In this document: positions 11,281 through 26,950 of the stretch, one piece after another
Layout: each line of letters begins with the position of its first letter
Position numbering within the stretch: the stretch's first letter is position 1
NCBI GenBank assembly: GCA_021790235.1
Contig: JAJYID010000001.1
Span: 43,131 to 107,130, forward strand
Origin: a bacterium
GTDB taxonomy: Bacteria; Patescibacteriota; CPR2; UBA1875; JAJYID01
Length of the DNA stretch: 64,000 nucleotides
Direction of reading: 5' to 3'
The notes under the pieces: model-generated
The model's input: only the letters and a program-made list of their open reading frames with translations
The model's database searches: none
Told to the model about the DNA's origin: nothing
Position numbers and translations under genes: made by a program

Positions 11281-11561
11281 ATAATCTGGGTGATGTTTTT
11301 GAAAAAAAGCTGGCACAGCTTAGGATAAAAAAACAAATTAACGCCGCACTTATTTGTGAAGCGTTTGATAAGGCCGTCGCAGAAGTTTTCGGAGAACAGG
11401 GAGCTAAAAACGTGAAAGCCATTTCATATAAAAACAACACTTTGAAGGTTGGGGTATCATCAAGTGTTTGGGCGAGTGAGATTAATCTCAGACAACTTGA
11501 ATTGGCAGAAGATAGGAGTATGAGGTTTATATATAAGCAAGATTTACATTACCTAAGGTAA
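11277..11561 (+). CDS. DUF721 / DciA-like protein
   Basis: 94 aa ORF overlapping the recF stop by an ATGA junction. DUF721 proteins, the DciA helicase-loader family, typically sit next to dnaN-recF. Confidence 0.5.
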   Translation: MNNLGDVFEKKLAQLRIKKQINAALICEAFDKAVAEVFGEQGAKNVKAISYKNNTLKVGVSSSVWASEINLRQLELAEDRSMRFIYKQDLHYLR

Positions 11562-12058
11562 GCGGGGGTATCCCACACGATGTTTATATTTGGGTCATGG
11601 GGGTCAATACCTGTGTTTTTTAATAAATTTAAAATTTTGTCTTTATAAATTGAGGTTGGGGTTTTCAAGAAAGTTACAAAGAGAGAATTATTTATATTAT
11701 AAAGATTATAATCATTTGTTTTAATGGGCAAAGTGTCGAGAAATTTATTAAATTTTTCAACATTTGGGTCTATTAGTGTAAATTTTAAAGCGGTGTCATT
11801 TTTAAGATCCACCTCCTCATTTACTTCAGAATAACCAGCCTTAGTGATTTTCACCATATGTTTTCCGGAATTTAGCTTAAAATAAGTTGGAGACTGGCTA
11901 CTGGTTTGATTATCGATTGTTACTTTTGCATCAGATGGCTGGGTTGTTATGTAAAATTTAAACTTCTTAGGGACAAGAAAGTAAATCAAAAAACAACCAA
12001 CAATAATCATAATAATTATGAGGATGATGAATTTAAACTTGTCTATTAGTTGATGCAT
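11549..12058 (-). CDS. membrane-anchored PEGA-like domain protein
   Basis: N-terminal transmembrane helix (IILIIIMIIVGCFLIYFLV) followed by a beta-rich PEGA-like segment (AKVTIDNQ...GKHMVKITKAGYSEVNEEVDL). Confidence 0.45.
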   Translation of the reverse strand: MHQLIDKFKFIILIIIMIIVGCFLIYFLVPKKFKFYITTQPSDAKVTIDNQTSSQSPTYFKLNSGKHMVKITKAGYSEVNEEVDLKNDTALKFTLIDPNVEKFNKFLDTLPIKTNDYNLYNINNSLFVTFLKTPTSIYKDKILNLLKNTGIDPHDPNINIVWDTPAYLR

Positions 12059-12082
12059 TTGAATATATTAAAATATAGGTTT

Positions 12083-14650
12083 TTATTTTTTACAACTAAA
12101 GGCATCTCCGTAACCATTATTATTTAAATAGTTGAGAGGCATTGAGTAAGTTTTGGTCATACTGGTATGGTTGTTATTATCAGAAGAGGGTGAGTACTTT
12201 TCAAGGTAAGCATCAAATGATAGTGGACCCGCTTTACACTCTGTGCATGATCCGTTTGGATTTACATAAACATCGTATATGTAAGCTGCCTGTCCGTAAA
12301 GGCTGTCCTTCCAGCTTGCGTAACTATACCATTTCCTCCCATTTACCATACAGCCTGGTTGACTTGCAGTTGCAGTTCTTCCGAAAGCATTATGACCTTC
12401 AGCGCAAGGAATGGCTGTGCCTAAAGATGATTCTGTCATTGCTTCTCCAATAAGTATTAAAGGGTTGATATTGTTTTCTTGAGCAGCTTGAACAAAATCC
12501 AACCCCATGCCTTTATATGGGGAGTCGATACCGGTACTTTCTATAAAAGCATTGATACCCTGAGCCATTTTATCTGGGTCAGTAATATTTGCTGAACCGC
12601 CCGCCGGTGATAAGCAATCAGGCCCGGCTTCACCACTTCCTCCACATTTCAAATCCTTATCTGCCAAAGAAACTAGGCCTGACATAATATTGATAAACTT
12701 TTCTTCATTTAGGGTGTTGCCATTGAGTACATTCCACTTTCTCACAAATCCTATGTCGTACTGGTCTTCTATGAAAATGAGGTTCGATAGATCTATGGAG
12801 TTAGCTAAAGACCCAAGACCTTGGGTGTCTCCACCCAAGGAGTGGATAGTATAATCCTGCGCATAAGTGTCTTTTATTCTCTCTGCTTCGTTGTAAACCA
12901 TGGCTTCATCCATCTTGTGTTGGGGATTGAACTCATACCAAAGACCACCTTCACGATCAGCGCAAGTAGGGATTTTTATCTCATCTTTTAAGGGTCGGTT
13001 AGGGTCAATAGGTGGTTTTTGCTTCCAAGGGTTCCCGCAGTCAAGTATGGCTGGATCGCTAAGTGTCCCCATGTTAGTAGTTGCACCTGAGATTGCTAAA
13101 AGTATCAGCGGATTAATTTGTTCTCCTCCATCAAGTTCGCTGGCACTCACAAAAAGCGCCCCGGGATCATTCCCGTTTAGGTGGTTAAAAGGTGAAGTTG
13201 GATACTTCTGTTTCAAATATTTATTAATGGCATCAATAAGTTCAAGACGATTTTGTCCTGATGTAGGAGCATCTTTTGCCTTGCTTTCTTCAAAATCTAC
13301 TCCCCACATACCCATACAGCCCATTCTTGCCTCAAGTTTTGTATATTGGTCGCAATATTTGCAAATGTTTGAGTTTAATAAACATATCTGGTTAGATGTG
13401 TTAGAGTTGGATGTACTTGACGGAAGACCTGTTCTTATATCGTTTAGTTTGCTATACAAATTAGTACCAGGACAGGATGTATTATTCATATCTGTATGTG
13501 CTCCATCGTGATTGTCATCGATATTTCCACAACCACTGCCTGTGCATTTATAGTCCTTATGCCCGGCGATATTGGGGCTAGAGATTGTTGGATGTCCCTC
13601 TGTCCCCGGGAATGCGTCGTTGCCTTGAAGATCAATATGGTATGTTTCATTTAACCAAAGAATGAGATTTCTTGCTGCAGCCATACTTGCTTCACTGGGC
13701 TCGGCATTTTCATAATTTCCCATAATGGCTATTCCAATACTTCCGACGTTGTAGCCCTTAGTATGCCCCCCGACTACATTCATACCACCGGCACGACCTT
13801 CATAAATATTACCCTGCTTGTCTATTACATAGTTGTAACCAATATCTCCCCAGCCCCTTTTAATATGTTCCTGCCAGATACCCCGCATGTCTGCTTTCGG
13901 GTCGTTTGTTGTAGTTGAAGCAGTATGATGGATAATGTATTTTTTAGCCGGTGAGTACTGAGGGGCCCAGTTAGGTGATGATTCGCCATCAGGGCAACCC
14001 CAATCAGTCCTGGAAATAATATGGGGGCTTTGCGGATTATCAGCGTTTGCGATCGGAAAAATCAATAGTCTGCCCAAAAAACTTTCAACCTTTTTTAAAA
14101 TGCCGCTTCTGGTATCCATGTAGTAGAGATTTATATTTTTCAGTATCGGGCTTAAACTTGTGTTAGAAGTTTTAAGCACAATTTTATATTGGATCTGGTT
14201 ACCGGTATAGAAAAATGGGGCTTCAGGGCTTAGTTTTTGATTTGCAGTTCCATCTTTTTCTCCGGTATCCCCTTCTATTTTTTGCCAGTTGCTCCATTTG
14301 CCGTTCTCCCCCAGTCTTAGATATAATTCTAAGCTTGTACCTTGGGGTGTTTCTTGTTGCCAGTATGGAGCCACCCCACTGAATTCAAAACTGGTGGTAA
14401 AGACTTTTGATTTGTATATTCTCTCAGGGTTAAAAGACCCGGCGGCATTTTTATCTAGAGAAATATTTTTATCTGTTTGGTCTTCTTTTATGGTTGATGT
14501 TTTGAAGACTTTAGTGGATGTTTGAGTAGAAGAAGCAGTTTTCTGTTGTTTCGTTTTAATGAAAGAAAGGCCTGTGGCAACAGCCAATAAGAAAAGTGCC
14601 AAGAGGACGGAGGTAAACATTAAAAATCTTTTTTTTGATGTTATTTCCAT
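12083..14650 (-). CDS. secreted multidomain peptidoglycan hydrolase (Amidase_2/PGRP domain + GH73 glucosaminidase-like domain)
   Basis: N-terminal signal/transmembrane segment. Central region YIIHHTAS...GWGDIGYNYVIDKQGNIYEGRAGG...GGHTKGYNVGSIGIAIMGNY is an Amidase_2/PGRP fold. The C-terminal region INPLILIGEAMTESSLGT...HNAFGRTA...YSYASWKDSLYGQAAYI follows the FlgJ/GH73 pattern. A Cys-rich linker separates the two. Confidence 0.6.
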   Translation of the reverse strand: MEITSKKRFLMFTSVLLALFLLAVATGLSFIKTKQQKTASSTQTSTKVFKTSTIKEDQTDKNISLDKNAAGSFNPERIYKSKVFTTSFEFSGVAPYWQQETPQGTSLELYLRLGENGKWSNWQKIEGDTGEKDGTANQKLSPEAPFFYTGNQIQYKIVLKTSNTSLSPILKNINLYYMDTRSGILKKVESFLGRLLIFPIANADNPQSPHIISRTDWGCPDGESSPNWAPQYSPAKKYIIHHTASTTTNDPKADMRGIWQEHIKRGWGDIGYNYVIDKQGNIYEGRAGGMNVVGGHTKGYNVGSIGIAIMGNYENAEPSEASMAAARNLILWLNETYHIDLQGNDAFPGTEGHPTISSPNIAGHKDYKCTGSGCGNIDDNHDGAHTDMNNTSCPGTNLYSKLNDIRTGLPSSTSNSNTSNQICLLNSNICKYCDQYTKLEARMGCMGMWGVDFEESKAKDAPTSGQNRLELIDAINKYLKQKYPTSPFNHLNGNDPGALFVSASELDGGEQINPLILLAISGATTNMGTLSDPAILDCGNPWKQKPPIDPNRPLKDEIKIPTCADREGGLWYEFNPQHKMDEAMVYNEAERIKDTYAQDYTIHSLGGDTQGLGSLANSIDLSNLIFIEDQYDIGFVRKWNVLNGNTLNEEKFINIMSGLVSLADKDLKCGGSGEAGPDCLSPAGGSANITDPDKMAQGINAFIESTGIDSPYKGMGLDFVQAAQENNINPLILIGEAMTESSLGTAIPCAEGHNAFGRTATASQPGCMVNGRKWYSYASWKDSLYGQAAYIYDVYVNPNGSCTECKAGPLSFDAYLEKYSPSSDNNNHTSMTKTYSMPLNYLNNNGYGDAFSCKK

Positions 14651-14659
14651 TTTTTACTT

Positions 14660-26495: not shown

Positions 26496-26549
26496 CTCAA
26501 AAGGAAAAACCGGTGAGATTAGCATGAACTTCAGTCCATATCTCACCGG
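26496..26549 (-). terminator. intrinsic terminator/attenuator after the small membrane-protein gene
   Basis: 10-bp inverted repeat CCGGTGAGAT...ATCTCACCGG (26510-26519 / 26540-26549) followed on the minus strand by TTTTTCCTTTT. Confidence 0.5.
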
Positions 26550-26550
26550 C

Positions 26551-26775
26551 CTATTCCAGCTTACTCCAAAGTACACCTCCTATGATAAGGGCGATTACCA
26601 ATATGGGTATTAATTGGTAATCGCCTTCTGCCGAAGCTACTGCAATCAGCAGAAGGATTATCGGGAAAGTAATTGTCCTTAAAATCACTAAAGACAATCC
26701 TAGGATTACCCCTAATCCCAGACAAGTCACGGCTATTGCCGTGACGTCGTTTAGGGAAGACTCTATCACTCCCAT
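26551..26775 (-). CDS. small two-transmembrane-helix membrane protein, first gene of the cluster
   Basis: 74 aa. GGAGG ribosome-binding site 5 nt upstream of the ATG. Followed directly by its own intrinsic terminator. Confidence 0.45.
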   Translation of the reverse strand: MGVIESSLNDVTAIAVTCLGLGVILGLSLVILRTITFPIILLLIAVASAEGDYQLIPILVIALIIGGVLWSKLE

Positions 26776-26861
26776 TTTTCCTCCTTTGGCATGTCGTTTT
26801 CTGTTGTCTTTTCTGAAATTTTACAAGCTGTGTGCACCTGCGACTTGGCAGGTAATAAGTC

Positions 26862-26950
26862 ATTATGCATCTAAAAATTAGAAATGTCAAGGATTTCGTA
26901 CCGTGAATGCTCGAGACCTTTACATTCGTACCGTGAATTCGTACTGTGAG
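26862..26950 (-). promoter_or_regulatory. sigma70-like promoter (-35 TTGACA, 17 nt spacer, -10 CATAAT) with three upstream direct repeats
   Basis: Minus-strand TTGACA at 26885-26890 and CATAAT at 26862-26867. Repeats TTCGTACCGTGAAT at 26895-26908 and 26925-26938, plus a degenerate TTCGTACTGTGAG at 26938-26950, lie immediately upstream of the -35 box. Confidence 0.4.

Follow-up and report, generated by a model that had tools for sequence, protein, structure and literature searches.

Introduction

The Patescibacteria type IV secretion system (T4SS) is among the few machines with a demonstrated essential role in the epibiotic way of life of these ultrasmall bacteria. Here we analyse a T4SS locus in a 64,000-nucleotide stretch of an uncultured Patescibacteria genome (contig JAJYID010000001.1, positions 43,131 to 107,130; hereafter the window, within which all coordinates are counted), and compare it with the systems described to date. 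McLean et al. 2020 (PMC7427843) reported a conserved T4SS region in Saccharibacteria that encodes VirB4, VirB6, VirB2 and, in an array, small secreted proteins; the region in TM7x (Nanosynbacter lyticus) is the equivalent of the T4SS of Candidatus Southlakia epibionticum ML1 (S. epibionticum). The latter, SEML1_0006-0019, was found to be essential for epibiotic growth by transposon sequencing (Tn-seq) in Wang et al. 2023 (PMC10633639), with nearly all of its genes scored as essential, and it has pilins but no recognisable coupling protein or relaxase. On one side the published gene table lists dnaA, dnaN and recF. The opposite strand then carries a hypothetical gene, a PEGA gene, a GH73/lysozyme/Cys-protease protein, a large peptidase and VirB4, followed by a 293-amino-acid (aa) protein, PrgI and VirB6-like genes that have an NTF2-like gene between them; six pilins follow on the far side, and then Hsp20, comFC and tRNA-Ser (PMC10633639).

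A wider survey (Quinonero-Coronel et al. 2025, PMC12102498) places the Patescibacteria VirB4 clade as sister to the monoderm mating-pair-formation type FATA (MPF-FATA) and describes a phylum-wide pattern of VirB4, TrsD, PrgI/VirB3, VirB6 and VirB2 arrays. According to the same survey, most of these loci have no relaxase and many are close to dnaA. Our results indicate that the window very probably carries a chromosomal, origin-adjacent T4SS of this Patescibacteria type, the orthologue in position and composition of SEML1_0006-0019 of S. epibionticum ML1 (together with the PEGA gene SEML1_0005). The locus is thus another member of an already published, phylum-wide system, found at the expected position. 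It adds one orthologous locus of expected content from an uncultured relative, and the general picture is unchanged.

Layout and chromosomal setting of the locus

Open reading frames (ORFs) of at least 60 aa were called with a greedy caller that discarded any ORF sharing >60 nt with a longer ORF (rpoD was lost in this way), and the Pfam scan covered all ORFs called across the window. Fourteen consecutive ORFs, all on the minus strand, span 11549-26775. A first-pass annotation of the same DNA had proposed a 14-gene single-strand cluster at ~11.5-26.9 kb encoding a T4SS-like apparatus with a VirB2/3/4/6 core and wall hydrolases, and the ORF layout and the Pfam and NCBIfam domain matches agree with it on these points. 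The conserved core runs from 24149 down to 11549 and comprises the following genes, given in the order of transcription (TM, transmembrane).

23058-24149, minus strand: 363-aa pilin that opens the conserved core (PF18895, 28.7 bits at aa 294-355)
22137-23036, minus strand: 299-aa pilin (PF18895, 32.1 bits at aa 229-292)
21752-22108, minus strand: small VirB2-type pilin, 118 aa (PF18895, 50.1 bits; a signal-like segment and two TM segments)
20036-21643, minus strand: VirB6/TrbL-like polytopic membrane protein (Pfam TrbL, PF04610)
19379-20029, minus strand: PrgI/VirB3-like protein, 216 aa, two TM helices (Pfam PrgI, E 1.8e-5)
18654-19379, minus strand: TrsD-like protein, 241 aa (NCBIfam TrsD NF041427, E 1.1e-9; a weak TraC_F_IV match)
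16814-18625, minus strand: VirB4 ATPase, 603 aa (NCBIfam NF045971; Pfam P-loop_TraG, AAA_10 and CagE_TrbE_VirB)
15237-16814, minus strand: bitopic protein with an extracytoplasmic C39-like peptidase, 525 aa (Peptidase_C39_2, 50.2 bits)
14660-15250, minus strand: TM-anchored PEGA protein, 196 aa (Pfam PEGA, 28.8 bits)
12083-14650, minus strand, the hydrolase slot: TM-anchored peptidoglycan hydrolase, 855 aa (Amidase_2, 66.5 bits; Glucosaminidase/GH73, 33.9 bits)
11549-12058, minus strand: TM-anchored PEGA protein, 169 aa, last gene of the block (Pfam PEGA, 42 bits)

From the first pilin downstream the ORFs stand close together, at spacings between -14 and +108 bp. The left flank is core chromosome (jag-yidC-yidD-rnpA, followed by dnaA-dnaN-recF-dciA); dnaA lies at 7321-8673, the dnaA-dnaN-recF-dciA block abuts the cluster, and the GC skew changes sign at ~6-8 kb of the window. 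The right flank, likewise core chromosome, has HSP20, comFC and pilB together with clustered tRNA-Ser and tRNA-Arg genes, cdaA and more housekeeping genes. The GC content of the block is unremarkable when compared with these flanks.

The window and S. epibionticum ML1 share the same slot, between dnaA-dnaN-recF and Hsp20-comFC-tRNA-Ser, and the same gene order of PEGA, hydrolases, VirB4, a TrsD-like gene (~240-290 aa), PrgI, VirB6 and a PF18895 array. Both have GH73 in the hydrolase slot and neither has a local coupling protein or relaxase. The two loci differ in detail. The window has three pilins on the core strand, two of them with large Cys-rich domains, whereas ML1 has six small, divergently transcribed ones. 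One VirB6 (535 aa) contrasts with two in ML1 (998 and 1088 aa), and an NTF2/VirB8-like component, represented by SEML1_0012 in ML1, was not recognised in the window. The hydrolases are an Amidase_2+GH73 protein and a separate C39-like protein in the window, compared with a GH73, phage-tail lysozyme and Cys-protease protein plus a 1113-aa peptidase in ML1. Finally, the locus head in the window holds extra, clade-specific genes.

Compared with the surveyed Patescibacteria systems, as far as the accessible sections of PMC12102498 describe them, there is no essential difference. Those loci likewise combine VirB4, TrsD, PrgI/VirB3, VirB6 and VirB2-like arrays without a relaxase and lie near dnaA, dnaN and rnpA, with comF nearby in some classes; PEGA proteins, hydrolase-slot swapping and pilin ectodomains are not described in those sections. 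The earlier view that the component set and order are distinctive thus does not hold, considering the match with the S. epibionticum locus and with the published phylum pattern.

The same-strand run extends upstream past the cluster, through a 688-aa ORF, a 342-aa ORF and HSP20, up to 30838. This ~19 kb block (11549-30838) begins just right of the GC-skew switch and lies on the strand opposite to dnaA-dnaN-recF, and it is therefore oriented head-on to replication. The T4SS core genes in the S. epibionticum table share this orientation relative to replication, which is unusual for essential and presumably well-expressed genes.

Conservation among close relatives

To place the locus among its relatives, loci from other genomes (L002-L009 and L014-L017) were compared with the window by tblastn. 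Such a synteny comparison had been proposed in the first-pass annotation, and the gene order proved to be kept across the relatives compared: PilB-comFC-HSP20-[variable]-three pilins-VirB6-PrgI-TrsD-VirB4-C39-PEGA-[hydrolase]-PEGA-dciA-recF-dnaN, with the same order found in at least seven other genomes. Identity to the window proteins decreases from VirB4 (75-87%) through TrsD (57-73%) and PrgI (44-58%) to VirB6 (29-52%); for the C39 protein it is 22-53%. The closest named relative, with a VirB4 that is 87% identical, is a metagenome-assembled genome (MAG) labelled 'uncultured Candidatus Saccharibacteria' (L004). The identity of VirB4 across species points to purifying selection and not to decay of the system.

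In L004, positions 8033-9930 hold two dciA-like matches, with a further pair of reverse-strand ORFs (232 and 215 aa) separating the T4SS end from recF, which suggests a small local insertion or duplication.

The ATPase core and VirB6

VirB4 scored 389.8 bits against NF045971, the CD1110-family VirB4 model (curated NCBI cut-off 325), which represents a VirB4 family of Firmicutes ICEs (ICE, integrated conjugative element). Its best PDB match was 4AG5, the Thermoanaerobacter VirB4 (E 2e-47), while TrwK was matched at E 4e-5. At least 8000 homologues were found; the 120 listed measure 569-637 aa, and the named ones among those listed carry the names Patescibacteria, VirB4 or TraC. The 603-aa protein is full length for the Patescibacteria clade, to which these nearest neighbours suggest that it belongs.

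The 241-aa TrsD-like protein shows no similarity to the 603-aa VirB4 when the two are compared, so they are not paralogous, and PF26593 (TraC-like) is annotated on a protein identical to it. We read it from its sequence as a detached VirB4 N-terminal module that is conserved as a separate gene. The PrgI/VirB3-like protein has TM segments at 24-42 and 51-69, and its orthologues in L002, L003 and L016 carry PF12666. When aligned with the 894-position Mbov_0397 VirB4 profile, PrgI, TrsD and VirB4 cover positions 11-105, 87-233 and 276-890, respectively. The three genes are therefore colinear with the single-chain VirB4 of a mycoplasma ICE and together equal one long VirB3-VirB4. This separation is an ancient, conserved division, like that of TrsC-TrsD-TrsE in pGO1. 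The earlier description of VirB4 as 'split' needs revision accordingly, as 603 aa is the clade length and the 241-aa ORF belongs to the TrsD family. A frameshift or pseudogene split was also considered, and it is ruled out by the clade-typical length and the conserved TrsD-family gene.

VirB6 measures 535 aa from an ATG at 21643 or 547 aa from a TTG at 21679. It scored 29 bits against PF04610 (cut-off 25.9), PF19590 (TrbL_3) is annotated on an identical protein, and seven TM-like segments are followed by a basic, hydrophilic C-terminal tail of ~200 aa.

These features resemble the Gram-positive MPF-FATA systems with which we compared them (Trs of pGO1/pSK41, Prg/Pcf of pCF10 with PrgI, PrgJ, PrgH and PrgK, and the C. 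difficile CTn elements). As in those systems, VirB4 passes the CD1110-family cut-off, a separate TrsD stands upstream of virB4, VirB3 is of PrgI type, a VirB7/9/10 outer-membrane complex is absent, and a large multi-domain wall hydrolase is encoded beside the ATPase. Unlike the window, MPF-FATA systems lie on mobile elements with a type IV coupling protein (T4CP), relaxase and oriT, and they have surface adhesins instead of VirB2 pilins. Their VirB1 analogues are SLT/lysozyme enzymes with CHAP or NlpC, compared with Amidase_2+GH73 and C39 in the window.

Three adjacent pilins with conserved and divergent parts

All three adjacent pilins exceed the cut-off of the T4SS_pilin model PF18895, with a mutual identity of about 30%. 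The 299-aa pilin consists of a signal peptide, a Cys-rich N-terminal ectodomain of ~190 aa and a C-terminal PF18895 module, with 14 Cys in the whole protein. The 363-aa pilin is built in the same way, with an ectodomain of ~260 aa and 9 Cys in the whole protein. When window and L016 are taken together, the ectodomains of the large pilins span ~190-290 aa and are Cys-rich (9-20 Cys per whole protein).

Conservation is unevenly distributed among the pilins. The 118-aa pilin aligns over its full length with its L016 orthologue at 71% identity, while only aa 198-298 of the 299-aa pilin (55% identity with its positional orthologue) and aa 266-359 of the 363-aa pilin (54%) can be aligned. The ectodomains themselves are unalignable between the window and L016, although the VirB4 proteins are 87% identical. 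Because the small pilin is conserved throughout and the large ones share only their C-terminal modules, the sequences suggest one conserved shaft pilin and two pilin-anchored surface domains that diversify rapidly. The 118-aa protein is accordingly a candidate major pilin. The Cys-rich, unalignable N-terminal domains of the two large pilins are a modest addition to the known picture.

A fourth PF18895 pilin, of 215 aa, is encoded outside the cluster at 33790-34437 on the plus strand (PF18895, 56.9 bits; C-terminal DUF6970, 30.2 bits). It is 54% identical to the 118-aa pilin and lies among four tRNA-Ser genes and one tRNA-Arg gene.

Profile matches for the VirB2, VirB3 and VirB6 assignments, on which the first-pass annotation had staked its interpretation, were thus found, with PF18895 and PF04610 above their cut-offs and PrgI just below.

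Anchored wall hydrolases and PEGA proteins

All hydrolases and PEGA proteins of the locus bear an N-terminal TM anchor. In the 855-aa hydrolase the amidase occupies aa 233-376 and the GH73 glucosaminidase aa 719-821. PDB matches identify the former as an N-acetylmuramoyl-L-alanine amidase of PGRP/T7-lysozyme type with aligned zinc-ligand motifs (IIHH and H..CPG), and endolysin/amidase matches were also obtained in PHROG. Full-length orthologues are present in L004 (46% identity) and L017 (40%).

The 525-aa protein carries its papain-fold cysteine peptidase domain at aa ~372-525. Only nine homologues were found among 5.8e9 proteins, and Q379, C398 and H479 are invariant in eight homologues. In an AlphaFold2 (AF2) model the C-terminal domain reached a predicted local distance difference test score (pLDDT) of 72-91, and Foldseek matched it to the C39 domains of PCAT1/ComA, to the pseudomurein endoisopeptidase PeiR and to papain-like toxins. 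Of the 'C39/CHAP-type' label given previously, the C39 part is therefore retained (Peptidase_C39_2, Foldseek) and the CHAP part is dropped. Because of its position and extracytoplasmic topology, this protein is a candidate VirB1-analogue wall peptidase. An SLT/lysozyme fold was considered for its N-terminal and middle domains and set aside, as the model has a pLDDT of <50 to ~70 there and the Foldseek matches concern the C-terminal domain only. A role as a double-glycine pilin-maturation protease is likewise an unsupported alternative, since no conserved GG motif precedes the pilin modules. The families encoded in the operon (Amidase_2, GH73 and C39_2) differ from the SLT/lysozyme plus CHAP/NlpC families of VirB1-type enzymes, and by sequence the wall hydrolases would be functional analogues of those enzymes and not members of their families.

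In every relative with sequence at this position, the 196-aa PEGA gene comes directly after C39 (32-68% identity). The 169-aa PEGA protein has one N-terminal TM segment, and its gene overlaps the convergent dciA by 13 nt; a PEGA protein holds the same terminal position in L004, L009 and L017, as SEML1_0005 does in S. epibionticum.

Between the two PEGA genes the hydrolase slot changes its content among the relatives. An Amidase_2-type protein of ~860 aa occupies it in the window, L004 and L017, and GH73 was detected in two of these proteins, those of the window and L004. In L007 and L009 GH73 stands alone, and L002 and L003 have NLPC_P60 and SLT on separate genes. This change of domain content among close relatives is a further modest addition to what was known.

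No conjugation functions in the window

We searched the window for the functions that a conjugative system would need. No VirD4/TcpA-type coupling protein (T4SS-DNA_transf, TraG-D_C or TrwB-type) was matched by Pfam in the 64 kb, no relaxase of any MOB class had a family match in the ORFs scanned across it, and neither an integrase or recombinase nor VirB11 was found there by Pfam. VirB7, VirB9 and VirB10 had no Pfam matches, and no oriT-like intergenic inverted repeat was found in the window. The sole T2SSE-family ATPase in the window is a 539-aa PilB-type protein with an MshEN domain (31681-33300); we rejected it as a stand-in for VirB11, because its length and MshEN N-domain are those of the type IV pilus/type II secretion system type. 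The ~4 kb to the left of the window contain no T4CP, relaxase, integrase, VirB11 or mobile-element genes. These Pfam and repeat scans confirm the earlier observation that coupling protein, VirB11, relaxase, integrase and oriT-like repeats are missing from the 64 kb, and the VirD4, relaxase or integrase that would have spoken for an ordinary ICE does not appear in the ~4 kb beyond the left end.

One rival reading is an ICE, intact or decayed, with its relaxase, coupling protein and integrase beyond the ends of the window. It would account for the VirB4 family and for the gene order (TrsC-like, TrsD, TrsE-like), both of which stem from conjugative elements of Gram-positive bacteria; relaxases do occur in a minority of Patescibacteria genomes (PMC12102498). 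However, housekeeping genes stand on both sides of the locus (rnpA-yidC-dnaA-dnaN-recF-dciA and HSP20-comFC-pilB-tRNAs), several species as well as S. epibionticum have it at the identical chromosomal position, and its GC content is like that of the flanks. The 64 kb and the additional ~4 kb hold none of the three defining genes, and the oriT-like repeat is missing as well. We consider this explanation highly improbable and rejected it on the flanks, the conserved position and the lack of relaxase, T4CP and integrase in the window. The T4SS descends from the conjugation machinery of monoderms (MPF-FATA). It is not itself a conjugative element, which agrees with the first-pass annotation.

T4SSs without a dedicated coupling ATPase are known from Bordetella pertussis (Ptl), Brucella (VirB) and Helicobacter pylori (ComB), where they serve toxin export or DNA import and not conjugation. 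Unlike the window, these are diderm systems with a VirB7/9/10 core, most of them with VirB11, and their carriers can grow without them.

Proposed mechanism and alternative functions

We infer every step of the following mechanism from established knowledge of VirB-type families. PrgI, TrsD and VirB4 would form a membrane-docked ATPase that docks at VirB6, which would act as the membrane channel or assembly platform. VirB4 would pull Sec-inserted pilins from the membrane and polymerise them into a VirB2-type pilus, with the small conserved pilin as the shaft and the two large pilins displaying fast-changing, Cys-rich ectodomains that may contact the host surface. The anchored peptidase, amidase and glucosaminidase would open the cell wall, certainly the cell's own and possibly that of the host. 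Since no coupling ATPase is encoded locally, our analysis leans moderately towards a machine for pilus assembly and host contact, whose pilus or channel may also act as a conduit, over the classical recruitment and export of cytoplasmic substrates. It is plausible that the apparatus contacts or breaches the envelope of the host or acts as a conduit, and published speculation points the same way. The episymbiont setting assumed in the first-pass annotation is consistent with a Patescibacteria genome whose orthologous T4SS is essential for epibiotic growth (PMC10633639).

Alternatively, the machine could export effectors or toxins, delivering proteins, the wall hydrolases among them, to the surface or the interior of the host bacterium; such substrates would be either Sec-dependent, as in Bordetella Ptl, or recruited by a distantly encoded coupling protein. 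Effector delivery has been speculated upon for Saccharibacteria (PMC7427843, PMC10633639), and Ptl and Brucella VirB are precedents for protein-secreting T4SSs without a T4CP. The variation of hydrolase-slot domains between close relatives would be expected if these were tuned to the host wall, and the variable gene slot at the locus head also agrees with this possibility. However, the N-terminal TM anchors on the hydrolases and PEGA proteins fit machine-side wall remodelling better than release, no substrate receptor is encoded locally, and the coiled-coil proteins in the head slot (described below) have neither a signal sequence nor a known effector domain. We regard effector export as unlikely.

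Import of DNA, possibly as a nucleotide source, is a second alternative, in which a system like H. pylori ComB would pass host DNA to the competence proteins encoded nearby. This has been raised before (PMC11665869, PMC12102498), a T4CP and a relaxase are not found here, as in ComB, and the comFC and pilB genes neighbour the locus in the window, L002, L003, L007, L008 and L014, with comFC also present at this place in S. epibionticum. Against it, the T4SS of S. epibionticum is essential while its comEC is dispensable for growth and the neighbouring comFC (SEML1_0021) scored as non-essential. In addition, no VirB7/VirB9/VirB10 homologues are present and the architecture is thus not ComB-like, and the adjacency to comFC could be mere conserved synteny near the origin. 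DNA import therefore seems quite improbable to us.

Nonetheless, our preferred interpretation, a Patescibacteria-type T4SS used for pilus assembly and host contact, needs to be weighed against several observations. The window protein scored 25.6 bits against PrgI in Pfam, just under the cut-off of 27, and no VirB8-like NTF2 component had a hidden Markov model (HMM) match among the window ORFs; the only ORF with a VirB8-like topology is the 342-aa ORFan at 29300-30328, with an unusable single-sequence AF2 model (pLDDT 45). VirD4 homologues lie far from virB4 in many Patescibacteria (PMC12102498), and a coupling protein may be encoded elsewhere in the genome. The source genome appears Saccharibacteria-like, with a placement in Saccharimonadia that derives from one MAG name and synteny. 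The T4SS pilus is itself a prediction, and so is the target of the hydrolases, be it the cell's own wall or that of the host. Furthermore, the role of the Patescibacteria T4SS has been called 'completely unknown' even in the cultivated model (PMC11665869).

Where host specificity might reside

For comparative purposes, the fixed parts of the locus are VirB4, TrsD, PrgI, the small pilin and the C39 peptidase followed by PEGA, while turnover is fast in the hydrolase-slot domains, the pilin ectodomains and the head-of-locus genes. These fast-changing parts are where host specificity would be sought. It is conceivable, though we would not expect it, that a fixed VirB2/3/4/6-TrsD core is flanked by two fast-evolving, host-matching 'specificity' modules that are swapped between close epibionts. 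The candidates for such modules, put forward just as tentatively, are the anchored hydrolase slot and the Cys-rich N-terminal ectodomains grafted onto two pilins. If this were true, the hydrolase cassette would be tuned to the peptidoglycan chemotype of the host and the pilin ectodomains to host surface receptors, and the locus would be a host-range determinant and a direct handle on what the machine touches.

The variable head of the locus

Upstream of the first pilin, the head of the locus contains the following features.

26890-26862, minus strand: sigma-70-like promoter TTGACA-17-CATAAT (11/12 match, the best in the 20 kb scanned)
26551-26775, minus strand: 74-aa two-TM protein (no HMM match)
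26500-26549, minus strand: terminator-like hairpin and then UUUUUCCUUUU, between the 74-aa and 529-aa ORFs
24895-26484, minus strand: 529-aa K/E-rich protein, clade-specific head gene (no Pfam, NCBIfam or PHROG match)
24214-24891, minus strand: 225-aa K/E-rich protein (27% K+E), clade-specific head gene (no Pfam, NCBIfam or PHROG match)

Both K/E-rich proteins are probably coiled-coil and cytoplasmic, and no TM segment was found in the 225-aa one. Among 1.84e9 proteins, just two further cluster representatives (50% identity clustering) exist for the 529-aa protein, one of them encoded directly after HSP20 in the MAG that holds L004. In L014/L015 a homologue of the 225-aa protein (31% identity) follows a 520-aa homologue of the larger one; no homologue of the 225-aa protein was found in L002, L003, L007, L008 and L016. 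The 74-aa ORF had no counterpart by tblastn in any relative compared and is probably a small transcription unit of its own; it is not a conserved part of the T4SS.

The content of the interval between HSP20 and the first pilin also differs from genome to genome. In the window it holds the 342-aa ORFan, the 688-aa polytopic protein, the 74-aa ORF and the two coiled-coil proteins. In L016 it contains nothing but a homologue of the 688-aa protein (60% identity) and one small ORF in reverse orientation. L014/L015 have the coiled-coil pair alone (28-32% identity), L002 has two small unknown proteins, and L007 a HATPase/STAS-like protein and an unknown protein; L008 has nothing there. Considering this variation and the small number of homologues, the three head genes are clade-specific occupants of a variable slot. 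Their inclusion among the parts of the apparatus, as had been proposed, is therefore not supported, since they are missing from most relatives. Whether the five ORFs that separate HSP20 from the pilins belong to a phage or to a defence system was also considered; they had no PHROG, NCBIfam or Pfam match (PADLOC was not run), and the idea was dropped.

The promoter with upstream repeats that had been placed near 26.86-26.95 kb was recovered in our analysis, as the best sigma-70 match in the 20 kb and three repeats. These are 14-nt direct repeats, ATTCACGGTACGAA, at 26895-26951 on the minus strand, which abut the -35 box with start-to-start distances of 13 and 30 nt. Matches to the repeat number 3 in the window compared with 0.22 expected, and the repeats were not found elsewhere in the window or in the loci of other genomes. 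They are a candidate regulator binding site. The promoter with its repeats was not found in any relative compared. Other promoter-like sites are found at 26491-26464 and, immediately ahead of the first pilin, at 24184-24156 (TTGGCT-17-TATAAT).

The hairpin that follows the stop codon of the 74-aa ORF has a predicted energy of -25.1 kcal/mol (z -4.28; equalled by 0 of 200 shuffles) and is followed by a U-run. Because this terminator-like structure directly follows the 74-aa ORF, the single-operon model, with transcription of the whole cluster from the promoter at 26.9 kb, appears doubtful from the sequence and is not supported as first formulated.

As a side observation, the near-consensus promoter appears to drive only the 74-aa ORF, and the promoter, repeats, ORF and hairpin together have the look of a small unit under regulator control that was inserted at the locus head.

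Other genes of the head interval and the window

The 688-aa protein (27181-29247, minus strand) contains ~10 TM segments, ends in a soluble C-terminal domain and is matched by nothing in Pfam, NCBIfam, PHROG or PDB. The bitopic 342-aa protein (29300-30328, minus strand) is an ORFan with no homologue in 5.8e9 proteins. In L007 the variable slot encodes, at 3024-4109 on the plus strand, a 361-aa protein with HATPase_c_2 and the STAS-like DUF4325, which resembles a kinase of the anti-sigma-factor type.

Farther to the right in the window, rpoD lies at ~54969-56201 on the plus strand after dnaG, whose end it overlaps by ~61 nt, as seen in the called genes of an identical contig. A compact SOS-type block at 57485-60185 on the minus strand encodes LexA, a 130-aa unknown protein, RecA and RecX, and may be noteworthy for a reduced Patescibacteria genome.

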